In this document: positions 5,583 to 47,909 of the stretch, one piece after another
How the letters are laid out: each line of letters opens with the position of its first letter
Numbering within the stretch: the first letter of the stretch is position 1
Assembly: GCA_031414775.1 (NCBI GenBank)
Contig: JANOQI010000062.1
Span: forward strand, 1-64,000
Direction of reading: 5' to 3'
Length of the DNA stretch: 64,000 nt
From: Synechococcales cyanobacterium VAR_4_metabat_354
GTDB taxonomy: Bacteria; Cyanobacteriota; Cyanobacteriia; Cyanobacteriales; Chamaesiphonaceae
Notes under the pieces: model-generated
Told to the model about the DNA's origin: nothing
What the model saw: only the letters and a program-made list of their open reading frames with translations
Databases searched by the model: none
Program-made: the position numbers and the translations under genes

Positions 5583-5654
5583 AGCCCTCGATGAGGCTTG
5601 AACTCATGACCTCTTCATTACCAATGAAGTGCTCTACCACTGAGCTACAAGGGC
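5583..5654 (-). tRNA. trnT: tRNA-Thr(GGT)
   Basis: GCCCTTGTAGCTCAGTGGTAGAGC...CTTCA-TTGGTAA-TGAAG...GTTCAAG cloverleaf. Confidence 0.95.
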
Positions 5655-5706: not shown

Positions 5707-5789
5707 TGGGCCGAGTTGGATTTGAACCAACGTACGGGAACCCGAGCAGATTTACAGTCTGCCGCCTTTAACCACTCGGCCATCGACCC
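5707..5789 (-). tRNA. trnY: tRNA-Tyr(GTA)
   Basis: GGGTCGATGGCCGAGTGGTTAAAGGCGGCAGACTGTAAATCTGC, long variable arm, GTTCAAATCC. Confidence 0.95.
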
Positions 5790-9286: not shown

Positions 9287-9308
9287 AATGTTCTGGTAGA
9301 AATTGTAG

Positions 9309-9702
9309 TGGAGCTGGGCAGAGTCGAACTGCCGTCCGCCTTAGGTATTTACTTTCCGCTCGTTCACAGGTTTAGCCCTTCTAATCCTTGGGGCGGGAGA
9401 AATCCATTATCCCGGATCACAGGATTCTTTGATGAATCTTAGCTAGGCAGCCTACCAAAGACGGCTAAATAGAGCATCCGTTGGGGGTTATCTATAGTAT
9501 TTAACGGAGTCATACTATAAATGCTCGGACTCAGAAATTAATCTTAAGTGTTTTTAAGCAGCTACAGGAGCGGCTTTACGAGCGAAAGGTACAATGTTGT
9601 TTGCATCTATGTTTATTTGAGCCGATATTTACGAGAGTGGACTCCCTCTCGACCTGAATCACAGTGCAGCTTTCGCTAACACGTCGAAACCTTTACAGCC
9701 CC
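9309..9702 (-). ncRNA. ssrA: tmRNA
   Basis: 5' GGGGCTGTAAAGGTTTCGAC and 3' GTTCGACTCTGCCCAGCTCCA; tag ANNIVPFARKAAPVAA* at 9604-9554. Confidence 0.97.
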
Positions 9703-35146: not shown

Positions 35147-36349
35147 TTAGCGCTTAATTACACACCATTGGGTGATGGGTGCTGAGGCTTTCCAGCCAAG
35201 AAATTTACCGACAGGTTCAGCGTGTTGGATCGCAAGGCGGCTCAAATTTCCTCCGTACTGATATTGAAGCTGAAAAATCCGTTGTTCCGTTTCTACTGTG
35301 ACGGCGTTGGCGACCAGTCGTCCACCGACTCTTAGGTGGTGCCAGCATTTTTCAAAAACATCAGGGATCGTTAAGCCGCCGCCGATGAAAATGGCATCGG
35401 GCATGGGTAAGTCATCGAGAACTGCTGGGGCTTGACCAGCAATGATTTGGAGGTTGGGCACACCGAGCATCGCTGCATTATGGGCTAAATTTTGGCGACG
35501 TTGGGGATGTTGTTCGATCGATATCGCCAGGTTACGAGCATTCGATCGCATCCATTCAATGCTGATCGATCCATTGCCAGCACCGACATCCCACAGTAAT
35601 TGGCCAGGTAAAGGTGCTAGCGCTGCTAGTGTCACCGCTCGGATTTCGCGTTTGGTAAGCTGTCCATCGTGGTCATAACTATCATCTGGCAAACCAGGCG
35701 ATCGAGACATCCCCGACATCGTACTGGGGCAGTTCAGGGCGATCAGGTTCAGTTGGGCAACTTCTCGTTCTGACCAATCAGCCACACTACTGCTAATGAT
35801 TTTTTCAGCAGCGCCGCCAAGGTGTTCTAGCACTGTGATCTGCACATCACTTTGGCTTTGTTGATTTAAGATATTGGCCACTAGCGCAGGGGTGTAGCGA
35901 TCGGCACTCAAAGCCAAAATTCTGGCATTGGGGTAAAGGAGAGCGTTGATTAGGTGCGGATCGCGACCACAGAGGCTAACAGTCTCAATCTCGGGTAATG
36001 GCCAACCGAGCCGACTAGCGGCGAGGCTGAAGGCCGAGGGAGCTGGGATAATCGTGATTTGTTCGATCGGAATGTGTCGAAGAATAGTGGTACCAATGCC
36101 GTAGCACAGTGGATCGCCACTAGCTAAGATGCAAACGGCTTGGCCACGATGCTGTTGAATGAGATCGATCGAATCACTAATTGGTTTTTTCCAAGTCAAT
36201 TGTTGCTGGCTAGTGGCTGGCAGCAAGGATAAATGTCGCTCACCGCCCACCACTAAATCGGCTTGCTTGATGAGGGCGTGGGCAACTGGATTCAGACTAT
36301 CCAGACCATCATCGCCAATCCCAATAATTGATAGCCATCGATCGATCAT
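35147..36349 (-). CDS. cobL: Precorrin-6Y methyltransferase/decarboxylase (CbiE/CbiT fusion)
   Basis: ASGDP..YGIG, GQLTKREIR, WDVGAGNGS, FIGGG. Confidence 0.92.
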   Translation of the reverse strand: MIDRWLSIIGIGDDGLDSLNPVAHALIKQADLVVGGERHLSLLPATSQQQLTWKKPISDSIDLIQQHRGQAVCILASGDPLCYGIGTTILRHIPIEQITIIPAPSAFSLAASRLGWPLPEIETVSLCGRDPHLINALLYPNARILALSADRYTPALVANILNQQSQSDVQITVLEHLGGAAEKIISSSVADWSEREVAQLNLIALNCPSTMSGMSRSPGLPDDSYDHDGQLTKREIRAVTLAALAPLPGQLLWDVGAGNGSISIEWMRSNARNLAISIEQHPQRRQNLAHNAAMLGVPNLQIIAGQAPAVLDDLPMPDAIFIGGGLTIPDVFEKCWHHLRVGGRLVANAVTVETEQRIFQLQYQYGGNLSRLAIQHAEPVGKFLGWKASAPITQWCVIKR

Positions 36350-36479
36350 GAGCACTAACTTTAATTACGGCTATTTCACCGCCTATTGTAACTGTTGCTC
36401 AGTTATAAAATTGCTGATTTTCAATGTTGCCAATTCGATCGTGGCTACTTTCAAAATTACTACAATATGAATTATATAC

Positions 36480-36658
36480 ATCTAGAGTAATAGTGTTTAA
36501 ACTGAGACAGTCCAGTCTAAACACCCAATTCAGGGTGTTATGCGAATGAATATCGTGCTAATTTCCCTATTTTCTAGGGTATAGGCGGACAGGTGTCGGT
36601 ATATATGCCTGGTTTAAGGGGGTTATACTGAATCCGTCAGTATAACCAGTAGTTAGGC
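36480..36658 (+). promoter_or_regulatory. Conserved cassette-array leader with attI-like site
   Basis: TGTTTAAACTG-N8-CAGTCTAAACA (36494-36523); perfect IR GGTTATACTGA-N5-TCAGTATAACC (36621-36647); core GTATAAC-CAGTA-GTTAGGC (36640-36658). Homologous to 46100-46196. Confidence 0.7.
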
Positions 36659-36738
36659 TTCTCATCTATTGTTATTGAAGCAACCTAGCAAATTGATTTG
36701 AAAGCTACATTTACATTAAAATTTGATTTTGTTTAAAA

Positions 36739-37404
36739 ATGAAAATAGACCAGAAAATAATTCAGCGAATGGATGATTTGTTGGCAGCAGGAGAAAGTGT
36801 TCTTTGTACTAAAAAAAGCCCTTCTAGCAATTCAATTGGTTTTGACTCATTAGTTAATTCTCAAGATGCTTACCAATGGTTTACAAGTGTTCAAAATCTT
36901 TTAGTTAGGGTTTTTGGTGAGGAAAGTGAGCACTATAAAAATTTTAGTGCACAAGACAAAAAAAGACTAACATATTCTCATGTTTATCGAGCACAAGGAA
37001 TTCTCAAAGCTGCTAAAGATGATTACGAACATGAACATCTTTTTGATCTAAAGAAGATAATTGAAGCAGAAGTTTTTGATGATTTCTTAGATCAAGCAAA
37101 TGCACTATTGGAAGCAGGTTATTTCCAACCTGCCGCAGTTATTGCTGGAAGTGTTCTTGAGGATGGATTGAGAAAGCTCTGTGTAAAAGAAAATATATCT
37201 TTACCTCCAAAACCGAAACTTGATTTAATGAATGCAGAATTAGCGAAGTCAGGATTGTATAATAAACTTACTCAAAAAAAGATTACGGCAATTGCGCATA
37301 TTAGAAACAATGCTGCGCATGGACATTGGGATCAATTTGAAAAACGGGATGTGCAAGAAGCTATATCTTGGATAGCCCAGTTCATGGAAAGTAACTATGC
37401 CTAA
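36739..37404 (+). CDS. HEPN/DUF4145-like protein (cassette 1)
   Basis: AAVIAGSVLED..RNNAAH (RxxxxH); AT-rich; stop codon lies inside the attC R'' box. Confidence 0.7.
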   Translation: MKIDQKIIQRMDDLLAAGESVLCTKKSPSSNSIGFDSLVNSQDAYQWFTSVQNLLVRVFGEESEHYKNFSAQDKKRLTYSHVYRAQGILKAAKDDYEHEHLFDLKKIIEAEVFDDFLDQANALLEAGYFQPAAVIAGSVLEDGLRKLCVKENISLPPKPKLDLMNAELAKSGLYNKLTQKKITAIAHIRNNAAHGHWDQFEKRDVQEAISWIAQFMESNYA

Positions 37405-37488
37405 CAAGCGGCTGCACACGGAACTAGTTATTACTCTGTCGGTTATGATGCAAAGTGTTTAGCTGTCCGGTGAGCGTGACCGTTAGAC
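37399..37488 (+). mobile_element. attC site 1
   Basis: GCCTAAC...GTTAGAC, 90 bp. GCT[G]CAC[A]CGGA pairs with TCCGGTGAGC, leaving two extrahelical bases. Confidence 0.88.
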
Positions 37489-37523
37489 CGCTCAGTAAAA
37501 ACTTTTTAGGATAGTTCCCGTCA

Positions 37524-37913
37524 ATGAACCTCGAATTCAGCCGTCGTCTTGCCCTGTTGGGGATTGTTCCACCCATAGCTGATACCGTTCGTCGTTGGCA
37601 CCAATTGGGTGACTTAAAAATCTGGCCTTTTTGGTTAGATGATTTTCTTCTTGGTGGTTTTCTACTCTACGGTGCATGGTTGACACAAAAGGATGCGAAC
37701 AATGGTAGACGCTTTCTTTCGGCTGCTTGGGGGTTTGCTTGTGGCATGGTGTACCTCAGTTTTTTCGACCAGATTACTTCTCTCGACAAACCCGATCCTG
37801 CCCCGATCCCTTCTGAATGGGTCGCTGTAATTAAAGGAATATTCTTCTTTCTTGCTGTTTTGGGATTGATTGGAAGTTTATGGGGAAACCCTAGAGAGTC
37901 TAGGCGACATTGA
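37524..37913 (+). CDS. Hypothetical membrane protein (cassette 2)
   Basis: 129 aa with several hydrophobic segments, directly after attC1. Confidence 0.65.
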   Translation: MNLEFSRRLALLGIVPPIADTVRRWHQLGDLKIWPFWLDDFLLGGFLLYGAWLTQKDANNGRRFLSAAWGFACGMVYLSFFDQITSLDKPDPAPIPSEWVAVIKGIFFFLAVLGLIGSLWGNPRESRRH

Positions 37914-37983
37914 TAAGTGGGACTGAATTGATCATCTGTCTCAAGCTAAAATGGAAGCGTCAAGTCGCAGCGAGGACAACCCC

Positions 37984-38259
37984 ATGACAGTTCGACAACC
38001 CCGATATAGCAAAGAAGAGTTCGCCCAGCGCGGCGATGTACTCTATGAGTCTCAGATTCGCCAACAAGTCGAAAAAGGCAATCATGGGAAGATAGTGGCG
38101 ATCGACATTGAAACCGGAGCCTTTGAAGTCGCAGACGATATCGTAACCGCATCAGAGCATCTTCTCACCAGAGTGCCGGATGCCCAGACTTGGTTTATCC
38201 GCATTGGACACCAGGCTGTATACCATTTTGGTGCGCGGAGTCTGAGAAAATTCGGATGA
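37984..38259 (+). CDS. DUF5678-like small protein
   Basis: MTVRQPRYSKEEFA.RG..YE..GKIVAIDIETG..WFIRIG. Confidence 0.65.
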   Translation: MTVRQPRYSKEEFAQRGDVLYESQIRQQVEKGNHGKIVAIDIETGAFEVADDIVTASEHLLTRVPDAQTWFIRIGHQAVYHFGARSLRKFG

Positions 38260-38624
38260 TACATGGAATAGTCAATCAAAATTGTGAAGCGATCCTTTCT
38301 GTTGTCGTAAAGAATGACACTAAAACACAACTAGTTGATGTAGTAGTCGATACAGGTTTTTCCGGCTTTCTGACTCTGCCCTCTAGTATGATTACGGCTT
38401 TGGAATTAGTTTGGAAGGGGCGTGATGTTGCGACTTTGGGAGACGGCACTTCCTGTATTTTTGAAGTTTATATTGCAGTTGTAATCTGGGACGGGCAATA
38501 CCGCACGATCGACATCAATGAATCAGAAACTATTCCTCTAATTGGGATGCAATTGTTACGAGGCTATGATTTACGGATTCAGGCAATAGAAGGTGGTAGT
38601 GTTACAGTCAGTCTACTAGAGTAA
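38256..38624 (+). CDS. Clan AA aspartic protease
   Basis: VVDTGFSGFLTLP catalytic motif, PLIGM; ATGA overlap with the upstream gene. Confidence 0.85.
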   Translation: MIHGIVNQNCEAILSVVVKNDTKTQLVDVVVDTGFSGFLTLPSSMITALELVWKGRDVATLGDGTSCIFEVYIAVVIWDGQYRTIDINESETIPLIGMQLLRGYDLRIQAIEGGSVTVSLLE

Positions 38625-38631
38625 TTCTGGT

Positions 38632-38661
38632 CGTTCGCGCAGCGTTGCGCCAGCGAATCGC
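38632..38661. repeat. SDR5-like short repeat inserted in a CG^ATCG site
   Basis: CG-TTCGCGCAGCGTTGCGCCAGCGA-ATCGC, two mini-hairpins. Confidence 0.45.
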
Positions 38662-38662
38662 A

Positions 38663-38744
38663 GGCTAACAAACCAGTTGGGGTTGGCATTCTCTAGAGAT
38701 GCTAGCTCAGACACAACATTGTTTGCTCAACCAGAACGTTAGCC
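38663..38744 (+). mobile_element. attC site 2 (degenerate)
   Basis: GGCTAAC...GTTAGCC, 82 bp; GTTG/CAAC inner boxes imperfect. Confidence 0.65.
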
Positions 38745-38799
38745 TCTGAGTTATCTGTGGGAACGTAACTGGAAACTTATCTGTAGGTTTGTGCGGTAA

Positions 38800-38896
38800 G
38801 GGCTTGTAAAGAAACAACTTCATGTTTTGAGGCTGAAAGCTTTTCCTTGTCGGGAAACTACCGATCGAAACCATGAGCTTATTTTTTTACAGCCCC
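38800..38896. mobile_element. 97-bp MITE
   Basis: Imperfect 25-bp TIRs GGGCTTGTAAAGAAACAACTTCATG / CATGAGCTTATTTTTTTACAGCCCC, with TAA on both sides. Confidence 0.65.
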
Positions 38897-38987
38897 TAAG
38901 TGATTCAGGAGTCTTGGGTTAGAACACGGTCGGAGTATCTATCGATGGGGTGAGGTTGCAAAAAAAATATCCAGGTAGAATTTACCT

Positions 38988-39200
38988 ATGGAAAATCGAA
39001 GTAGATCCGGCTTTCGCACACGCCTATTAGTATTCTTCGCTTTGGCGTTTGCCTGGTCGTGGGTCTGCTGGCTCCTGACTTCAGTTATTAGACCTCAATT
39101 GCCCTCTTTAGCTGGGGTAAATTTTCTGGTGGTTGGCTTCGCATCACGATTATGAGACCTGTCGGTGGACGGAACGGACTGCGTATCTGGCTCGATTTGA
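38988..39200 (+). pseudogene. CPBP (CAAX protease/Abi) N-terminal remnant
   Basis: LLVFFALAFAWSWVCW, then frameshifted GGRNGLRIWL. Confidence 0.5.
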
Positions 39201-39221
39201 TGCCGACAATCGAGAAATTAT

Positions 39222-39563
39222 ATGGAAAGTAAAACCAAACTAACACTGATTAAAATCATTCATACTGCGATCTAGGTATTCTTCAATGTTGTAATTTTCT
39301 ATATGCTGTATGCCGCGATTGCCAATAAACTCGATCACTGGCTCTGGATCGGTTATGGACTTATCGCTCTAGAAGGGCTAATCCTACTCACTTTTAAATC
39401 CCACTGCCCATTAAATCTGCTGGCTCGAAAATACACCAATTCCACCCAGGACAATTTTGATATTTATCTTCCCAGTTGGCTAGCCAAGTATACAAAATTA
39501 ATCTACACCACTATTTTCGCGATCGTTACAATCATCACCATCTATCAAATAATGTCGAATTAA
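39222..39563 (+). pseudogene. Small membrane protein with internal stop
   Basis: MESKTKLTLIKIIHTAI*VFFNVVIFYMLY..CPL..NFDIYLP; TAG at 39273 is in frame with the 39303 ORF. Confidence 0.7.
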
Positions 39564-39589
39564 AAAATACCAAAACACTGGAGGCAGTA

Positions 39590-40351
39590 ATGACCAAACA
39601 AATTTCTCTTGATGCGCTATGGGATTCAGCCACATCTCAGGATCGTATATTCCGCTTAGAGGACTTCACGCACCTGCCAGAAGTCGCCAGACGATATCTT
39701 GAACACGCGATCGAACCTGGAACAAAGATCGCTTCTGCGGTGCGGTGGAAAATGCACGGCGAAATCAAATTAAAAAAGTGGATTCCATTCACAGCCGAGC
39801 AAGTCGTTTGCTGGGAACATGGACTGATTTGGAGTGCTACCGCATGGATGAATAGCTTCTTGCCCATTGTCGGCTCGGATCGGATCATCGACGGCATCGG
39901 TGCGATGCAGTGGAAGCTGTTAGGATTATTCCCTGTGATGACGGCGAGTGGTGCTGATATTACGCGGTCTGCTATTGGTCGCCTCCAATCAGAGTCACTC
40001 TGTTTACCATCTGTGTTCTGTGGCGATGATGTTTCATGGACAAGCACAGAGTCGTCGGAATTAGACTCCAATTTGCATTCCAGTTTTGTCGTGCAAGGTG
40101 AGCGAGCCGAACTAGACTTCACGATCGATCGAACAGGTCGTCTCAAAACCTTCAAGCTACCACGCTGGGGCAATCCAGACGATACTGAGTTCCGTTGTGT
40201 GGACTTCGGTGGAATTTTGGAGGAAGAGAGCACATTCTGCGGCTACACCATTCCGACCCGGCTACGGATTGGCTGGTACTTTGGCTCCGATCGGTTTGAG
40301 CCGGAGGGCGAGTTCTTTCGAGCCACGATCGATGATGCAATCTATCGATAG
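39590..40351 (+). CDS. DUF6544-like protein
   Basis: LPEVARRYL, W.PFTAEQ, KLLGLFPV, GW..EGEFFR; GGAGG RBS upstream. Confidence 0.7.
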   Translation: MTKQISLDALWDSATSQDRIFRLEDFTHLPEVARRYLEHAIEPGTKIASAVRWKMHGEIKLKKWIPFTAEQVVCWEHGLIWSATAWMNSFLPIVGSDRIIDGIGAMQWKLLGLFPVMTASGADITRSAIGRLQSESLCLPSVFCGDDVSWTSTESSELDSNLHSSFVVQGERAELDFTIDRTGRLKTFKLPRWGNPDDTEFRCVDFGGILEEESTFCGYTIPTRLRIGWYFGSDRFEPEGEFFRATIDDAIYR

Positions 40352-40375
40352 AACAATCTACGTCAAAGGATAAGG

Positions 40376-40657
40376 ATGAAAAATGAGAAAATATCCAATT
40401 GCTTGGTTCTATATCTTGGCTTTTGGTATGTCATGGCTTGGCATGATATCGACCGTCTTAGCCTCGCGAGGCACAGTACTAAAGGCAGTATTTTGCTAGT
40501 GGCGCTTCTTCATGGTTCGCTGAACGTGTGGGGACTATTTATAACTGGGGTGTCCCCTGTCGCATACGCTCTTCTAAATTGTGTGGTGGCGATTATCCTA
40601 ATAGCAGTGTTTGGAAGAGTAAATCTCTCTCGTCGAGAAAAGGTTTGCGCGGGCTAA
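40376..40657 (+). pseudogene. CPBP (CAAX protease/Abi) C-terminal fragment
   Basis: TKGSILLVALLHGSLN (HxxxN motif); stop lies inside attC3. Confidence 0.55.
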
Positions 40658-40738
40658 CAATTCAAATGCAGCGAACGGAAGAGAGATCTTGGTGCTGAAT
40701 CTGAAGTTGTCTGCTGCCGCTGATTTGAGCCGTTAGAG
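40652..40738 (+). mobile_element. attC site 3
   Basis: GGCTAAC...GTTAGAG, 87 bp; TCAAAT[G]CAGCG pairs with CGCTGATTTGA. Confidence 0.85.
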
Positions 40739-40764
40739 AACTTGTGAGGTGGGAAATCAATACA

Positions 40765-40875
40765 GTAAGTAGGCAGACATAATTGTTAGTAATATCAAAA
40801 TTACTTGAAATTCATATTGTGAGGTAATTAAGCCTCATAAAGCATCTTAATATTTAATTCAGCCCAGCTACTTAC
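40765..40875. mobile_element. MITE-like element
   Basis: Imperfect TIRs GTAAGTAGGCAGACATAATT / AATTCAGCCCAGCTACTTAC around an AT-rich core. Confidence 0.5.
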
Positions 40876-40994
40876 ATAGTTCTGGTAATGTCTTGTCTTG
40901 TATTGTTTCCCACTCCGTAATCTAGATTATTCCCAAATTGGATTAAGATATAACGTTTGTATTAGATTCTCAATCTAAATTAATATACAATCTA

Positions 40995-41026
40995 AAAAAA
41001 CTACTAAAAGCCTTTAGCAGTTTTTT
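40995..41026 (-). terminator. Rho-independent terminator
   Basis: AAAAAACTACTAAA-AGCC-TTTAGCAGTTTTTT downstream of the radical SAM gene. Confidence 0.5.
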
Positions 41027-41051
41027 GATTTCGCAAATCTAATCGCTAGCT

Positions 41052-42617
41052 CTACTTAGCTGCTGAGGCTAATTCTTTAGTAATAACTGGTGCAGTCAAA
41101 GCATCTTCCAGCTCAGACTTACCCAATCTTGCTTCGAGAATATTCATCACTTCTCGACCGAAATCATTAGGATTATCACGGAAGGCTTGCAAGCAAACTT
41201 CGCCAAAGAATGAGCCTAATGGTTCAGGATTCCAGAGTAATTTTTTGGCCACCCAAGGCATGTGGCTCATCGGGTTGTAGCCTGGTTTAATCACATTGTT
41301 TTTGAATGCATATTCTTCTAAATGGGTATGCGGCTGTAAACCGATAAAGAAGATGGCTGGTTCAACTTTATCTACACCAAAAATCTTTTCCATTTCACGG
41401 TGATAGGCAATCGTTTGGCGAATAGTTTCAAAACTTTCGTCAATTACATTAAAGGAGTAATTGATCGATACCATATCTTCAAATCCAGCCGCTTTGAGAT
41501 CGCGACAGTTTTGTAAGACAGTGCGGAGATTATAGCCCATCCGCATCTTCCTTACTAATTCTTGAGAGCCACTAGTAATGCCAATCTCAAAATAATTCAT
41601 CCCCGTTTTGACCATCAAATCACACAGTTCGGGTGTAAGATTATCAGCTCGAATATAAGCTGCCCATTTGATATCTTCCATCCCACTCGCAATGATTTTT
41701 TGTAATAACTCGATCGCATCATCCATATACTTGCGCGCCGGGATAAACTGAGCATCTGTAAACCAGAAATTCCGAATGCCACGATCATATAATTGGCGCA
41801 TCTCGGCGACTACTTCATCCGCTGGATTTATTCGTACTTGCTTACCTTCAATTACGGTATATACACAATAGCAACAGTTATGCGGACAACCGCGTTTGGT
41901 CTGTACACCGACATAGAAATCTCGATCTTGTAAGTAATAACTAAATTCTGGCCAAATTGTCTCGATATAGTTGTAATTGCACGCCGTCTTCTCGATCGAA
42001 GCTGGCAGTTCATGCACCAATCCTTTCCGAGGTGCTTCGCCCACAATATAGCAACGCTCAGGAGCGAGATCTTCGTTCCTAATAATTTTCTCTAACAATG
42101 CTTCACCTTCACCGATCGAGACGATCGATCCTTTCGGCAAACTCTTGGCCAACTGCTCATAGAAAACACTGACAGCACCGCCACCGACGACCAATTTAGT
42201 TAAAGGATTGTATCTTTGTGCCCGTTTTAGCCCACGTTTAATCAGAGACATATTCCGCCATAGCTCGGTATAGTGACTCTTGAGCATCCTGGCACCACCT
42301 AAAGCACCGCGTAATTTTTTGAGCGGATTGCGATCGTAAAAAACTTCAAAGGAGTTCTGGAGCGGATTACCCCCCCGGCCGCCGACTGGTGCATAAATTT
42401 GGATATCTCGCCAGGAATAGACTAGTAAATTTGGCTGAAATTCATCGATCGCAATATCCATGGCCGCACCATAATCTAGTGGCGGTACTGCGCCCAGATC
42501 AAAGATCCGTTGCTCGGCATCAGGGAACTGCTTATGAACGTGATCTGATAAGTAGACAACCCCGATCGGAAAGATCGGATTGCAAGGGAGACGACAGTAG
42601 AAAATGCGTTCTGTCAT
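41052..42617 (-). CDS. Photosystem II high-light acclimation radical SAM protein
   Basis: RLPCNPIFPIG start, RGCPHNCCYC, FWFTDAQF. Confidence 0.85.
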   Translation of the reverse strand: MTERIFYCRLPCNPIFPIGVVYLSDHVHKQFPDAEQRIFDLGAVPPLDYGAAMDIAIDEFQPNLLVYSWRDIQIYAPVGGRGGNPLQNSFEVFYDRNPLKKLRGALGGARMLKSHYTELWRNMSLIKRGLKRAQRYNPLTKLVVGGGAVSVFYEQLAKSLPKGSIVSIGEGEALLEKIIRNEDLAPERCYIVGEAPRKGLVHELPASIEKTACNYNYIETIWPEFSYYLQDRDFYVGVQTKRGCPHNCCYCVYTVIEGKQVRINPADEVVAEMRQLYDRGIRNFWFTDAQFIPARKYMDDAIELLQKIIASGMEDIKWAAYIRADNLTPELCDLMVKTGMNYFEIGITSGSQELVRKMRMGYNLRTVLQNCRDLKAAGFEDMVSINYSFNVIDESFETIRQTIAYHREMEKIFGVDKVEPAIFFIGLQPHTHLEEYAFKNNVIKPGYNPMSHMPWVAKKLLWNPEPLGSFFGEVCLQAFRDNPNDFGREVMNILEARLGKSELEDALTAPVITKELASAAK

Positions 42618-42675
42618 GGTGGTTGTAGGTAACAAATTATGTTAAATGGTGAGCTACAAAGAAATTTTAAGTATC

Positions 42676-42693
42676 TTTATATAAAGTTACACA
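42676..42693. promoter_or_regulatory. HLR1-like (RpaB) direct repeat
   Basis: TTTATATA-AA-GTTACACA, one mismatch per half to KTTACAWW. Confidence 0.4.
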
Positions 42694-42872
42694 AAATTGT
42701 CTGATTTAGGGGCTTTTGGGTCAGGAATTTCTAGGCTCAGCTCTGACCTAGAGGACTTTGACGGGGTGAGACTGTTCGTGATGGTAGTGATGGTTACAGC
42801 CGGGGGATCAAGGCAGTGATAGTTTAGTCTTCAATTACTTTTCATAAAAGGGTGCATCCCACCCCAAATAAT

Positions 42873-43217
42873 ATGTCTCAAATTTTAGATCCCGTTCCTT
42901 CGGATCGCTCCGATCCGATTTTCTGCTGCTACATCAATAACAGTAGCCAAGTGCAAATCGCGAGAATTACTAATATTGATAACTGGTACTTTGAGCGTGT
43001 TGCTTTTCCTGGACAACGCCTGATTTTTGAAGCGCCGATGAACGCGTATTTAGAAATTCATACTGGCAAAATGACTAGCTCGATCTTGTCCGATCGCATC
43101 CCTTGTATTCGTTTGCAGGTTGATGATCTAGACGAAGGCAGTTGGGAGAGTAACATGCTCAAAAGTTCGCCAGCTGAGTCTAGCTTGGCTGTTCCTAAAT
43201 TGGAGTATCAATACTAG
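42873..43217 (+). CDS. DUF1830 family protein
   Basis: CCYIN..QIARITNI.NWYFERV.FPGQRL.FEAP. Confidence 0.85.
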   Translation: MSQILDPVPSDRSDPIFCCYINNSSQVQIARITNIDNWYFERVAFPGQRLIFEAPMNAYLEIHTGKMTSSILSDRIPCIRLQVDDLDEGSWESNMLKSSPAESSLAVPKLEYQY

Positions 43218-43309
43218 ACACATGTTGGCAAATCTTTTAGCGCTGGGGGTTGTCTACACCGGATTGCCCCCAGTTGCTATGATGATGACTGATTGTGGAT
43301 GAGTGAGTC

Positions 43310-44440
43310 ATGAGCAAGCCCGCAGAAATAATTGTGATTGGCGGTGGAATTATTGGCCTATCGATCGCCTTAGAACTTCATTGGCGGGGTCTAGCTGTCC
43401 AAGTTTTAACCAGAAGTAATACAGAAGCGGCTACCTGGGCAGCGGCAGGGATGCTGGCTCCCCAAGCCGAAGGAATTCCGTCCAGTGCCCTATTGAATCT
43501 CTGCTTATGGAGTCGCAGTTTATATAGAGGATGGACGGCGAAGCTCTCTGCTATGACGGGGTTAGATACTGGTTATTGGGAATGCGGCATTTTAGCTCCT
43601 AAGTATCAGCAATTAGATGAATTAAATGAAACCAACTGGCTAACTGTCGCAGAGTTGCAAACTTACCTCCCCCGCACTAAGTTAAGCTCCGAAGTTGTTG
43701 GTGGTTTTTGGTTGGCCGCCGATGGCCAGGTAGATAACCGGAAACTTTATCAGGTGCTGCGGACAGCGGCTCAGATCGCCAATATCGAAATTGTCACCGA
43801 TATCGAAGTCCAAGCTTTTGATCAGCCAGCTGACCGGATCGATCAACTAACCACCAATCAGGGTGATTTTAGTGCCAGCCATTACGTTTTAGCTACTGGA
43901 GCGTGGTCCGGGCAATTACTACCTATTCCGGTCGTTCCTCGCAAGGGGCAATTACTGGCATTACAGGTACCCGATATCCATAATTTGCCCTTGGAAACCG
44001 TGCTGTTTGGCGAAGAGACCTATATTGTGCCACGTCGCGATGGGCGGATTGTGATTGGAGCAACTAGCGAAGATGTTGGTTTCTTGCCCGGTAATACTAG
44101 TGCTGGATTGCAGGAATTAATGGCCAAGGCTACGCGGCTCTGTCCCCCGTTAGCGACTTACCCCATTCAAGAGCAGTGGTGGGGCTTTCGGCCTGCTACC
44201 GTCGATGAGCAGCCCATTTTGGGTGATAGTCCCTACGCTAACCTCACCTTGGCTACGGGTCATTATCGCAATGGTATTTTAATGGCGCCAGCTACGGCTC
44301 AACTAATTGCTGATGCCTTAACTCAGGTCACTAGCGATCACCACCACTTGCTAGCGCATTTTAGCTACCAACGATTTGCCAACCAAAAATTATTTCCTGG
44401 TGCTGATGCTACCCAGTTGTGTCGCACGGCTAGCGCCTAG
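43310..44440 (+). CDS. thiO: Glycine oxidase
   Basis: GGGIIG, AAAGML, YIVPR, GFRP, GHYRNGIL. Confidence 0.9.
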   Translation: MSKPAEIIVIGGGIIGLSIALELHWRGLAVQVLTRSNTEAATWAAAGMLAPQAEGIPSSALLNLCLWSRSLYRGWTAKLSAMTGLDTGYWECGILAPKYQQLDELNETNWLTVAELQTYLPRTKLSSEVVGGFWLAADGQVDNRKLYQVLRTAAQIANIEIVTDIEVQAFDQPADRIDQLTTNQGDFSASHYVLATGAWSGQLLPIPVVPRKGQLLALQVPDIHNLPLETVLFGEETYIVPRRDGRIVIGATSEDVGFLPGNTSAGLQELMAKATRLCPPLATYPIQEQWWGFRPATVDEQPILGDSPYANLTLATGHYRNGILMAPATAQLIADALTQVTSDHHHLLAHFSYQRFANQKLFPGADATQLCRTASA

Positions 44441-44494
44441 CCCCAAAAAATAGTACATTGATCACCATCACTTTGTCACTAAGAGAGAACAACT

Positions 44495-45007
44495 ATGTTG
44501 GTTAACAAGTCTTTACTGCGTCGGGTATTGCCAGTGCTGGCTGTGATCGGCTGTACTATTGTTATTCTGCCGAGTAGAGCGGAGTACACGCTGTTTAGCG
44601 GGGTCGAACCCAAAAACCAACTTAGTTACAGCCTCGATTTTGGCAAGCGATCGATCACTGATAGCTATCGCCTTGTATTACCTGGCCGCAAAATGCAACT
44701 GGGCGCAGTCCAGCTCAATATTCTTTATCCGGAGAACTACAACGGAGTATTTGATGAAAACCAAATTACCATCAGCGCTGGTGAACAATCTATTCCGATC
44801 GCTGGCGTTAAATGGCAAAAAGAAAAGCGCAATCTCCAAATTGACCTGAAAGAACGTCTGCAAACCAAAGGTGATATCAATATCGTGCTGGGCAATGTCC
44901 GCAATCCAGACAAAAGTGGGTTGTTCTATTTTGATTGTCAGTACCGCAGCAGCCCTAATTTCCCGATCGCTAGATATGCTGGCACTTGGATTTTAAATAT
45001 TAAATAG
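44495..45007 (+). CDS. DUF2808 family protein
   Basis: Signal peptide, L.Y.LDFG, NVRNP, GTW. Confidence 0.75.
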   Translation: MLVNKSLLRRVLPVLAVIGCTIVILPSRAEYTLFSGVEPKNQLSYSLDFGKRSITDSYRLVLPGRKMQLGAVQLNILYPENYNGVFDENQITISAGEQSIPIAGVKWQKEKRNLQIDLKERLQTKGDINIVLGNVRNPDKSGLFYFDCQYRSSPNFPIARYAGTWILNIK

Positions 45008-45128
45008 CAAAAATTATATATTTGGAATAGTTTCTCAGAACCGCACCGCACAGCAATCCCTAGAAGCTTGATTCTCTTGCTTTAAGCCCTTGTTGGCCTC
45101 AATCACACCAGAATTCTAAAATTCACCG

Positions 45129-45647
45129 TCAAAATAAACTTTTTGCATATTCGTGCCAGTAAGCCGCAATCTCAGAAGTCTGCTTCAAAATTACGTCCGG
45201 AAGCAAGTCTGCTGGCCAAAAAGCAAGATGATAGAAGTCTACAGGTTCTTCTTCCTCAAGAATAGTATCCACATCTTTGCCGCGATCCATGTCACGAACA
45301 CAATAGCGTACTCGGTAAGTTCCAATTGAAAGCGGAATTTCGCAAACACATTCACCGTTCCAATCGTAGAGGGAAACTCCCTCACCATTTATCACAAAAG
45401 GAACTTCTACAACTTCTTCCCATGCTTGGTCAAGAGGAGGGGGAGCATCCAGCACGTCTATACTCAACCGGACGTGACCAGTATGCAGCCCTGTAATCAA
45501 AAAAAGTATATCAGATATGGCTGCTCCACAAAGCCCATTCGTCTGACCTTGAAAACAAGCAGATAGTTCAGCAGGTTCTTGGGCGTTGGACAGGACGTAT
45601 GCCTGTCCATAATGGACATACAAGCATCTATCGAAGATTCGAGTCAT
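45129..45647 (-). CDS. Hypothetical acidic protein (cassette, array 2)
   Basis: GQTNGLCGAA..TGLHTG..WEEVVEV..YRVRY..FWPA..AAYWH; begins right after the minus-strand attC. Confidence 0.7.
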   Translation of the reverse strand: MTRIFDRCLYVHYGQAYVLSNAQEPAELSACFQGQTNGLCGAAISDILFLITGLHTGHVRLSIDVLDAPPPLDQAWEEVVEVPFVINGEGVSLYDWNGECVCEIPLSIGTYRVRYCVRDMDRGKDVDTILEEEEPVDFYHLAFWPADLLPDVILKQTSEIAAYWHEYAKSLF

Positions 45648-45690
45648 TTGGAGTAGATCGCCATGTTTATTTGTGCTGGACAACTTTGCT

Positions 45691-45777
45691 GCCTAACGGC
45701 TTGGGCTTCAGCGGTAGCAAGAGTCTTCGAGTCAAAAACAGAGTATTGAGGCTATCCGCTGCAAGCCCTGGTTAGAC
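45691..45777 (-). mobile_element. attC site 4
   Basis: Minus strand GTCTAAC...GTTAGGC, 87 bp. GGGCTT[G]CAGCGG[A]TAGC pairs perfectly with GCTACCGCTGAAGCCC. Confidence 0.9.
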
Positions 45778-45804
45778 AATGCAGAAAGACCGACAAAAAC
45801 TCAA

Positions 45805-46056
45805 TTATCTCACTGCGCGCAGCTCCTCTTGAATAACTCGGCGTAGTGTTTCTTCATCTAGAGGCTGCTTCACTTTTTCTAGATACTCCCGCAAAGCCTC
45901 ATTCATGATAGTTTGATAGCCTTTGCCAGCAGAGTCACTCCGTTCTCGAAAGGTTCCTAACACATCATCGTCAATATAAATTGTGATACGAGTTTTACCT
46001 GTCTGGGGAATGACAGCACCCCGTTTTGCTTGACTAAAATCATATTCCGCTTTCAT
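45805..46056 (-). CDS. brnA: BrnA family antitoxin
   Basis: MKAEYDFS..KTRITIYIDDDV..GYQTIMNEALR. Confidence 0.85.
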   Translation of the reverse strand: MKAEYDFSQAKRGAVIPQTGKTRITIYIDDDVLGTFRERSDSAGKGYQTIMNEALREYLEKVKQPLDEETLRRVIQEELRAVR

Positions 46057-46099
46057 ACTTCTGTCTCTCCGAACGGGTCGCTGGACGGGCTGAAATCAG
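46040..46099 (-). pseudogene. brnT: BrnT toxin C-terminal remnant
   Basis: LISARPATRSERQKYESGI*, overlapping the brnA start; 5' part missing. Confidence 0.75.
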
Positions 46100-46196
46100 C
46101 TAGAAAACAGGAGTGTTAGCCCGACAGCTGTCTGCATAACACGCAAAATTGGGTGTTTAGACTGCATTATTTCAGTTTAAACATTATTTTCTAGAT
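46100..46196 (-). promoter_or_regulatory. Second, truncated copy of the cassette-array leader
   Basis: ATCTAGA..TGTTTAAACTG-N8-CAGTCTAAACACCCAATT..GTGTTATGC..TCGGGCTAA..TTTTCTAG aligns with 36480-36577. Confidence 0.75.
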
Positions 46197-46628
46197 AAAT
46201 ATATTTCACTAATATTTTGTAATAATCTCAAAAATCATCCCGATCGATCAGGGTCTATTCTTGCAACCTTGCGGGACAGCTGTTCTGTAATGTTACTGAT
46301 AAGGAGCGATCAGGCTATGAAGGAATGCAATGGAGTTGAGTTTAGAGATTAAATTTTGGGAATGGCAGGCAGGGGCTTTTTGACAAGTGGTCACCCACCT
46401 GTTTTTTTGGGCAGTTCTGAAGATGTTTCCGGATCAGCGAAAGCCGCCATCGTAAATTATGACAACACTTTGGGCATTCTAGGTACAACAGCCTTAGCTC
46501 TACCCAGACATCACTCATGTACCTCATTAACAAATACTGCCCAGTGATTTGCGACCAAATTTATTCTTCGTCAACAGCTTCTGCACACCAAATTTCGCCT
46601 TAGTTGAGTAGGATTGGAATTCCAATTT

Positions 46629-47909
46629 ATGTCCATCATCCCTAATTTATTAAAAAATAATGAATCGCCTGTCAGTGATATTCCTTTAGAGATAGAGGAT
46701 GAGAACATCGACGAAGAATTACCTGCTACTTGGCAAGAGCTAATCAACCTCGAAGATTTAGAAGAGCCGGAGGATGAAGTTGCTGACCAATCCAGCAAAG
46801 GCCAGCAGACCTACAGTCGGGATCTAGTTCGCCTCTATTTGCAAGAAATTGGCCGCGTCAAGCTATTAACTCGTGATGAAGAAGTGGCCGAATCCCAGCT
46901 GGTGCAACGCCATGGCCAATTGTTAGAGATTAGAAATATGGCAGCTGCTGCCGTTGCTACTGGTAAAAGTAACGATGCCATTATTGAAATGTATACGCGG
47001 CTAATTAATATCCGCGATCAGATGACCGTGCAAAGTGGACATCGGCCATTACCAGAGCGATGGGCAATAGCGGCTGGTATTGATGTGGGATTGCTCAAAC
47101 CCCAAGTTGCTGCTGGGAAAAAACGCTGGGCAGAACTCGCTAATGTGACCGTCGCAGAATTAGAGGAGATCCAGCTCAAGGGGGTAGCAGCCAAAGAACA
47201 TATGATCAAAGCCAATCTGCGGCTAGTGGTGTCGGTAGCTAAAAAATATCAGCACCGGGGCTTAGAACTCTTAGATTTGATTCAAGAAGGCACGATGGGC
47301 TTAGACCGAGCGGTGGACAAATTTGATCCGACCAAAGGCTATCGTTTTAGTACCTACGCTTATTGGTGGATTCGCCAAGGCATTACCCGTGCCCTTGCCA
47401 CTCAAAGCCGCAATATTCGTTTGCCAGTACACATCACTGAAAAGCTGAATAAGATTCGGAAAGTACAGCGCCAACTGACCCAAGCTGGAGTTTCTCCCAA
47501 ACTAGAAGAAGTCGCTCATGCGCTGGAGATGACTCCTGAACAGGTGCAAGAAGTCTTGATGCGGGTGCCTCGATCGATCTCCCTGGATGTAAAAGTCGGT
47601 AAAGACAAAGACACTGAATTAGGTGATTTGCTGGAAGCTGTCGAAATCTCGCCCGAGCAATTGCTGATGCGGGAATCTTTACACGGCGAGTTGCTACAAC
47701 TCCTGGCCGACCTTACTGAAAGAGAGCGGGAAGTAATTGCCCTGCGCTTTGGTTTGGGTCATGATCAATCTTACTCCCTGGCTGATATTGGGCGGATTCT
47801 CGATCTATCCCGCGAGCGGGTGCGTCAAATTGAAGCCAAGGCTTTGCAAAAGCTGCGGCAACCTAAACGCCGCAATCGGGTCCGTGATTATTTGGATATT
47901 CTTTGCTAA
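46629..47909 (+). CDS. sigC: Group 2 RNA polymerase sigma factor
   Basis: DLVRLYLQEIGRV, ANLRLVVSVAKKY, FSTYAYWWIRQ, SRERVRQIE; SigC-type insert. Confidence 0.85.
   Translation: MSIIPNLLKNNESPVSDIPLEIEDENIDEELPATWQELINLEDLEEPEDEVADQSSKGQQTYSRDLVRLYLQEIGRVKLLTRDEEVAESQLVQRHGQLLEIRNMAAAAVATGKSNDAIIEMYTRLINIRDQMTVQSGHRPLPERWAIAAGIDVGLLKPQVAAGKKRWAELANVTVAELEEIQLKGVAAKEHMIKANLRLVVSVAKKYQHRGLELLDLIQEGTMGLDRAVDKFDPTKGYRFSTYAYWWIRQGITRALATQSRNIRLPVHITEKLNKIRKVQRQLTQAGVSPKLEEVAHALEMTPEQVQEVLMRVPRSISLDVKVGKDKDTELGDLLEAVEISPEQLLMRESLHGELLQLLADLTEREREVIALRFGLGHDQSYSLADIGRILDLSRERVRQIEAKALQKLRQPKRRNRVRDYLDILC

Follow-up and report, generated by a model that had tools for sequence, protein, structure and literature searches.

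A whole and a cut-short copy of a predicted cyanobacterial attI region head two integrase-less gene-cassette arrays

Gene-cassette arrays without an integron integrase gene (intI) are known as CALINs (attC-site clusters that have no integrase), and one possible origin named for them is that an integron, one among several, loses its integrase; in the accessible portion of the same source, recognizable intI pseudogenes are recorded near only 15 of 279 CALINs (PMC4889954). For Xanthomonas, the accessible text describes genus-wide integrons at ilvD whose intI is often inactivated, with CALINs at separate conserved loci (bioRxiv 10.1101/2025.06.18.660453). Cassette insertion at attG offers a route for cassettes away from an integron (bioRxiv 10.1101/2022.09.11.507474, as far as its accessible text goes), and in Delta-attI-type cassettes a whole or partial attI lies away from its usual place and still recombines with IntI1 (Sci Rep 2026, PMC12901181, in the portion accessible). 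Here we describe two short cassette arrays in a window of 64,000 nucleotides (positions 1–64000 of the 308-kb contig C62) from Synechococcales cyanobacterium VAR_4_metabat_354. Each array starts with a copy of the same leader, copy A on the plus strand beside cobL and copy B on the minus strand facing sigC. The arrays are a CALIN variant that retains its attI platform and not a new system. The leader is probably the intI-proximal part of the lineage's chromosomal integron, a platform that was duplicated repeatedly and whose intI was then truncated or deleted, so that the window would hold two remnants of it.

In what follows the source genome is called G000 and its relatives G001–G009, with C for contigs and L for mapped leader stretches. 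Like a CALIN, array A has three same-strand attC sites, and its contig carries no intI; unlike CALINs as they appear in the accessible part of PMC4889954, the arrays of the kind found here begin with a complete attI and control region, and short intI stubs together with attI reveal their origin. IntegronFinder cannot see a cyanobacterial attI, because attI is searched only as exact class 1–3 sequences (PMC4889954, same portion). As in a sedentary chromosomal integron, G000 has an intI (on C35) with the leader next to it on the opposite strand, cassettes whose attC sites form a single family, and brnTA toxin–antitoxin cassettes, but the genus carries two to six platforms per genome, most of them without intI, and its arrays are short (one to four attC sites per mapped stretch). 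The Xanthomonas intI occupies one fixed site, and the accessible text reports no attI at the separate CALINs, whereas here the platform has multiplied and attI travels along. The attG route, as described in the part of its source consulted, places cassettes without attI and cannot explain leader-headed arrays; neither end of block A, the segment that holds array A, showed a GTT-type junction. The attI pieces of Delta-attI-type cassettes lie inside class 1 and class 2 plasmid arrays in the portion of that source accessible, whereas here whole platforms stand alone in the chromosome.

The original prediction for this DNA had pointed out the repeat at 36480–36577 (+) and 46196–46100 (−). The repeat is real, with a mean column identity of 80% on the alignment, and it forms the longest inverted pair within 30000–52000 (89 nt, 76% complementary; runner-up 31 nt). 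Its extent exceeds what had been noticed: A is homologous to other copies over ~220 bp, B covers the left 133 bp only. Past the former limit, homology between A and the copies on C35 and C27 continues for ~85 bp through a perfect 11-bp palindrome to GTTAGRC, the half that B lacks. A search of the whole of G000, which the prediction had proposed, yielded four real copies, the two of the window and those at C27:23423–23824 (−) and C35:93312–93539 (+). A fifth match, on C24 (E 0.058), failed to align and was dropped. The C27 leader is split between model positions ~178 and 169 by a ~170-bp insert with terminal inverted repeats (C27:23486–23656; L071 ~9487–9657), which looks like a small miniature inverted-repeat transposable element (MITE) that split the attI region.

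What the leader belongs to became apparent from its position next to intI. The prediction had found no tyrosine recombinase in the window, and this holds for the whole of contig C62, which has no PF00589 match (12 in G000 overall); tblastn with IntI gave no match in the window at E≤1e-5 or 1e-6. The intI whose location had been left to find lies on C35: the best tyrosine recombinase of G000 is encoded by an open frame at C35:92346–93305 on the minus strand, and TIGR02249 identifies the protein as an integron integrase, at 469.4 bits (cut-off 265) over residues 9–320. The C35 leader begins ~7 bp from the intI start codon on the opposite strand and is followed on its 3′ side by an open reading frame (ORF) for a pentapeptide-repeat protein, an attC site and then the contig end. 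The leader thus fills the stretch from intI to the first cassette, the place of an attI; this position applies to the leader family and not to the two intI-less copies of the window. C35 carries the one intact integron of G000, and neither window array is a complete integron.

We mapped leader, IntI and attC in up to 8 kb around each leader in 13 genomes. The leader was present in all 11 other genomes of the genus (two to six matches each), in 2 of the 25 sister-genus genomes and in none of 24 from other families of the order. The 13 genomes hold 43 leader units, of which nine adjoin a full intI and 34 do not. IntI relatives occur in 12 of 12 genomes of the genus, as a fragment only in G004 and as a copy with a TAG stop in G005. 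Whether leader copies elsewhere are associated with attC sites had been raised as a check on the prediction, and most are: 30 of the 34 intI-less units have at least 1.5 kb of downstream sequence, and in 22 of these 30 a same-strand attC follows no more than 5 kb away. Using a profile built from 21 full-length copies, we found the leader immediately upstream of intI in 13 of the 18 loci titled as other cyanobacteria, among them Egbenema, Nodosilinea, Leptolyngbya, Pleurocapsa, Myxacorys and Phormidium; three of the five missing loci have <170 bp upstream of intI. The non-cyanobacterial intI loci among the 80 fetched gave no leader match below E 1e-3. Judged by its sequence and place, the leader is the predicted conserved attI and control region of cyanobacterial integrons. 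It is not a new element and belongs to this genome's own integron type. Our literature searches found no description of an attI region for cyanobacterial integrons.

The anatomy of the leader was read from an alignment of 29 copies (A and 28 others). An operator-like palindrome near the intI start is followed by two YYTAAAC/GTGTTAT palindromes, two ~42-bp repeats that each carry a GAC..GTC dyad, the 11-bp palindrome and the terminal GTTAGRC. In A, the candidate core has its L box in the 3′ arm of the palindrome, then a 5-nt spacer and an R box (GTTAGGC, 36652–36658). In pairwise comparisons the copies stop being alike at GTTAGRC (model positions ~220–230), and A ends as an attI should, with a GTTRRRY box at the passage from conserved to variable sequence; crossover would fall between G and TT around 36652. 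In four copies (A, C27, G001:C219 and G007:C50) the operator-like palindrome has lost 6 bp and is thereby interrupted. No cassette-direction promoter was found inside the leader. The intI-facing promoter-like sites now point at housekeeping genes, at A towards cobL (85 bp from the leader) and at B towards sigC (~380 bp), and these predicted sites might affect cobL or sigC transcription. In L084, L086 and L105 (G009), an extra tandem copy of the ~42-bp internal module gives two overlapping profile matches.

That attC sites follow each leader copy on its own strand, as the prediction had it, was confirmed by iterated nhmmer (E 1.7e-16 to 2.9e-5). The profile was started from seven trimmed sites and applied at E≤0.01; earlier pattern-plus-fold genome scans had returned 1, 187, 180 and 92 mostly false matches and were replaced by it. 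An attC was expected to have R″ (RYYYAAC) and R′ (GTTRRRY) boxes 50–150 nt apart and to fold into an imperfect hairpin in which R and L boxes pair and whose shape is kept better than its letters. G000 has 17 sites: four in the window, two on C27, one on C35 and the rest on the short contigs C15, C30, C38, C50 and C53, which are probably pieces of the main array. All four window sites have the boxes, beginning with G.CTAAC and ending with GTTAG.., and are 82–90 nt long. In their bottom-strand folds the inner L-type stem is paired in three of four and the R boxes also in two of four (z −1.2 to −3.4; fourth site z +0.99). Read from the alignment, the inner stems differ in sequence between sites and stay complementary; RNAalifold on the same alignment gave five R-box pairs only. 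The attC sites of both arrays are of the same family as those beside intI. With three attC sites and no intI, array A is a CALIN under a threshold of two or more same-strand attC sites with no intI in the vicinity.

Copy B has a different fate. Its leader stops at model position 147 and runs straight into the last 19 codons of brnT, followed by brnA and an attC. An intact brnTA cassette is present on C27, and homology of array B to that cassette starts at the brnT remnant (92–94% identity); G003 also has the intact cassette (96%). A single deletion has taken the attI core half of the leader together with most of brnT, and B is a dead stump. Without the crossover half and fused to a truncated brnT, it cannot be a platform. 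With one clear attC and one degenerate end, array B alone falls below the CALIN threshold.

Both arrays occupy sites that are empty in relatives, a comparison the prediction had suggested. Copy A lies between cobL (35147–36355, minus strand) and a run of small ORFs, and copy B between a sigma-70 gene (46614–47909) and brnA; the four genes reported between the arrays are indeed there and encode radical SAM, DUF1830, DAO (FAD) oxidoreductase and DUF2808 proteins. In the closest relative, G001 (CobL 91% identical), the gap between cobL and the radical SAM gene is 138 bp, and homology to G000 ends at 36368 and resumes at 41013. At site B, DUF2808 and sigC are adjacent, 293–600 bp apart, in six genomes (G002, G003, G004, G005, G008 and G009), so that block B (~45008–46440) is an insertion in the G000 lineage. 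In G001:C243 (L133), DUF2808 is followed not by sigC but by sequence 86–87% like G000 contig C64, a rearrangement breakpoint exactly where G000 has array B. In G008, a leader of another subfamily (C65:29304–29512, L099) lies ~85 bp from the 3′ end of the radical SAM orthologue, head-on and opposite to array A; the region downstream of this gene may be a recurrent site for platforms.

The relatives indicate how intI-less copies arise. Six of the 34 intI-less units adjoin intI fragments (L075, L081, L082, L087, L101 and L108), and seven more keep a 15–70 bp stub of the intI 5′ end with its start codon (L073, L079, L084, L086, L092, L095 and L100). A leader tree built on 132 columns frequently places an intI-less copy with a second copy from its own genome; for G009, the intI-less copies join the one linked to intI. 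Grouping by genome with an intI-linked copy is the overall tendency. Together, the stubs, the fragments and this clustering point to duplication of the whole platform followed by loss of intI as the general route. The leader part of the platform would be a ~215-bp unit that combines an intI-facing promoter and operator-like palindrome with several GTTAKRC-type boxes of dyad symmetry; its terminal core ends in GTTAGRC, the point at which cassettes would join. Repeated duplication of the platform (intI, leader and cassettes) within the genus, with truncation or deletion of intI in the duplicates, would leave cassette arrays that still start with the leader, that is, CALINs keeping attI. A and B would be such remnants, lodged between genes at sites that in relatives are short and unoccupied. 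As a complete copy that heads three cassettes, A could still receive cassettes from the C35 IntI; at B, the deletion left brnA, one attC and one further cassette. Of this account, what the leader is, the missing intI, the boundaries, the vacant sites and the deletion at B are observed, whereas IntI binding to the boxes, the place of crossover and the sequence of events at A are inferred.

Several observations weigh against this reading. Beside A, B, C27, G001:C219 and G007:C50, no intI remains above chance were found by blastn, blastx or Smith–Waterman comparison with shuffles (a by-eye stub alignment for C27 and A was withdrawn), and a decayed-integron origin of the window's own copies would be argued from the relatives. 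Leader A is only 74–75% alike to the intI-linked leader on C35, and the L box of its core is of another subtype, seen in other species; A is thus not a recent copy of C35. cobL lies beside the radical SAM gene in one relative only (G001), so an insertion in G000 is not distinguishable from a deletion in G001. Eight of the 30 intI-less units have no downstream attC. Finally, all genomes are fragmented metagenome-assembled genomes (64–850 contigs), which may distort copy numbers and linkage.

The strongest alternative, to which we give a minor though real chance, is a distributed integron in which intI-less leaders are working attI landing pads under selection and one IntI loads several arrays in trans. 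Leader A retains every conserved box and the terminal core, the shared attC family and the continued association of most intI-less units with attC sites fit this, and three same-genome pairs of leaders (L084/L086, L092/L095 and L073/L075) suggest a change of cassettes after intI loss. Against it, copy B, L080, L083 and L093 lack the core, and the A core differs in subtype from that beside the only intI. G004 and G005 have three to four leaders each, and a full-length open intI was found in neither. In the pairs, stub and leader are equally conserved, with no extra constraint on the leader visible, and the pattern would equally follow from a duplication that stopped at attI, with no loading afterwards. 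The original prediction had spoken of dispersed stand-alone attI platforms loaded by a trans-acting IntI. The copies are of attI type and dispersed, and each window copy heads attC cassettes, but B is a stump without its crossover half; the one IntI encoded elsewhere, on C35, could in principle act in trans, but in G004 and G005, which carry leaders, no full-length open intI was found.

A related proposal has the ~215-bp attI module of this genus, carrying a minute intI remnant at most, move as a copy to new chromosomal sites once intI has gone and go on acquiring cassettes there from a single IntI in trans. Here the three pairs are informative. Their members (89%, 88% and 94% alike, in the order given above) share a truncation junction and ~30 bp of non-intI flank; their outer flanks are unrelated, and so are the cassettes past the crossover box. 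The common truncation combined with different flanks and cassettes implies that an already intI-less module was copied and that the cassettes differed afterwards; truncated modules at new loci with different first cassettes make loading in trans possible. We regard continued loading of such modules as rather improbable. If it is true, many CALINs would be active satellite arrays and not fossils.

It is very unlikely that the leader and a short flank form a mobile element, either MITE-like or moved by a transposase or a rolling-circle element, that seeds arrays. Such an element could account for A, C27, G001:C219 and G007:C50, which form a clade (bootstrap 84), are all intI-less and lie at four unrelated loci. 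It could also account for the ends of a gamma-carbonic-anhydrase-like gene that travelled with the leader block: the C27 leader adjoins the intact gene, only its last 15–26 codons lie beside the leaders of G001:C219, G007:C50 and G007:C16, and an intact gene is present elsewhere in G001 and G007, indicating that the block was copied together with a piece of its old neighbour. However, no transposase was found among the 20 neighbouring ORFs scanned, left boundaries vary from copy to copy (−5 to −134) with no common ends, and the junctions of block A show neither the terminal inverted repeats nor the target duplications of a transposable element or MITE. Moreover, intI stubs explain most intI-less copies. 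The proposal in the prediction that the leader is itself mobile and not the leftover of a decayed integron did not hold up: intI-less leaders of relatives lie beside intI fragments or 15–70 bp stubs, and no transposase, terminal repeat or common boundary was seen.

Still less probable is that the leader is a structured RNA (riboswitch, small RNA or 5′ leader) or no more than a promoter region that the copies share. Over 21 copies, 83.8% of the cells in the five palindromes are paired, compared with 30–44% when the partner is slid; the two adjacent YYTAAAC/GTGTTAT palindromes are 80% and 87% paired, and a core pair (columns 141/158) is split evenly between GC and TA, with 10 copies each. The palindromes contain 33 cells with two-sided changes, which none of 500 shuffles reached. 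Set against this, only six pairs show two-sided changes, no more than in shuffles (417/500), and there are as many G.T as A.C cells (50 each), so that neither strand is favoured. No Rfam match was found even at E≤1, and the leader has no detectable cassette-direction promoter. Within any one leader subfamily the boxes all change in concert, as sites for a single co-evolving protein would. Kept palindromes with equal G.T and A.C counts fit double-stranded protein sites, and we infer that a dimeric protein may bind them; the simplest candidate is IntI, given the resemblance of the boxes to GTTRRRY. Long-range pairing proposed by RNAalifold in the leader was not adopted, since repeated boxes permit many alternative pairings.

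An artefact, with co-binned strains or chimeric contigs creating extra copies, can be set aside in practice: all genomes are metagenome-assembled and many leaders sit close to contig ends, but the window copies lie deep within a 308-kb contig, both junction regions are spanned, with no discrepancies, by contigs from four runs, contamination of G000 is 0.36%, and at only 76% likeness the two copies are not collapsed or duplicated reads. Contigs of run X1 do not cover ~36445–38096 (cassette 1 and part of cassette 2; flank depth ~190), which runs X2 and X3 cover; the gap could be an assembly break or a population variant. An X4 contig joining 44994 to 46588, which would equal an empty site B, and another contig joining 37473 to 37969 have 23 and 24 letters, respectively, on the shorter side or at the join and were too weak to count. 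Exact-pattern scans of public metagenome contigs for the A core and, separately, for a conserved leader box returned 0 stretches.

With duplication of the platform and loss of intI as the preferred explanation, one whole and one cut-short copy show how orphan gene-cassette arrays arise. The cyanobacterial attI-region family is a marker of orphan arrays headed by a platform with a truncated or deleted integrase (13 genomes), and it supplies candidate attI sites for cyanobacterial integrons. A leader model would flag arrays as integron-derived in annotation even with one attC or none. The full-length intI-less A, the half-deleted B and the intI-linked C35 copy offer matched natural substrates for IntI action in trans.

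The features of both arrays are listed in Table 1. To the left of leader A, clear homology to C27 starts at ~36434, and the left junction segment shows no significant likeness to the intI 5′ end. The ORF of cassette 1 has a weak Pfam HEPN match (E 8e-4, under the curated cut-off), and its attC (E 1.7e-11) is the site with a weak bottom-strand fold, no better than shuffles. The last ORF of cassette 2 encodes a clan AA aspartic protease-like protein (TIGR03698, E 2.9e-14, 53.3 bits against a cut-off of 57.35). The DUF6920 match in cassette 3 has E 1.8e-48, and the attC of this cassette (E 1.7e-16) forms a hairpin with paired R boxes and a bulge. Eight cassette proteins compared with PADLOC gave no defence-gene match. 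In array B, the brnA region has 96% DNA identity to a cassette in G003:C46. The degenerate end of the second cassette (~45116–45050, −) was read by eye, nhmmer finding none there at E≤1, and the 184-aa ORF had no Pfam, NCBIfam or PADLOC match.

Table 1. Coordinates of leader and array features in the window
Feature	Position	Strand	Evidence or remarks
Left junction segment of block A	36369..36440	+	Absent from G001 empty site; weakly like flank of C27 copy
Leader A, predicted full-length attI and control region, without intI	36441..36663	+	nhmmer E 8.6e-67, model positions 2–233
Predicted promoter-like site, leftward (towards intI in complete integrons)	36471..36499	−	10/12 consensus matches, 17-nt spacer; consensus match only
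Two adjacent palindromes, YYTAAAC/GTGTTAT boxes, candidate accessory binding sites	36493..36539	+	Inverted repeat 12 nt, 92%
Candidate attI core, perfect 11-bp palindrome then GTTAGGC	36621..36658	+	Inverted repeat 100%; fold z −5.96
Cassette 1	36659..37488	+	221-aa ORF 36739–37404; attC 37399–37488
Cassette 2	37489..38744	+	ORFs 37524–37913, 37951–38259, 38256–38624; attC 38663–38744 (E 2.9e-5)
Cassette 3, 1.9 kb, several ORFs	38745..40738	+	ORF 39303–39563; DUF6920/DUF6544 protein 39590–40351; attC 40652–40738
Tail of block A, no attC	40739..41012	+	Homologous again to G001 empty site from 41013 on
Second cassette of array B	45050..45683	−	184-aa ORF 45129–45683; degenerate attC-like end ~45050–45116
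attC of brnTA cassette	45691..45777	−	nhmmer E 5.2e-13; fold z −3.36, 0/200 shuffles as stable
brnA antitoxin gene, what is left of brnTA cassette	45805..46056	−	Pfam BrnA_antitoxin E 4.3e-12
brnT remnant, last 19 codons and stop, fused directly to truncated leader	46040..46099	−	Same 19 residues as C-terminus of intact 90-aa BrnT on C27
Leader B, left half only, crossover half missing	46100..46232	−	nhmmer E 2.3e-21, model positions 11–147; alignment

The small ORF and the aspartic-protease-like gene of cassette 2 (37951–38624, overlapping at ATGA) recur as a pair in arrays of G002 and G005 (85–86%), and related pieces are found at G000:C16:251298–251484, C10:24763–25063 and C31:21984–22128. 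This gene pair may be a widespread two-gene module. Within the tail of block A, 40789–40873 is 81% like G000:C63:257–340 and represents a small dispersed repeat. Unrelated to the leaders, the window contains a tmRNA gene at 9306–9702 (−) and tRNA genes at 5583–5654 (−) and 5707–5789 (−), all found as Rfam gathering hits.

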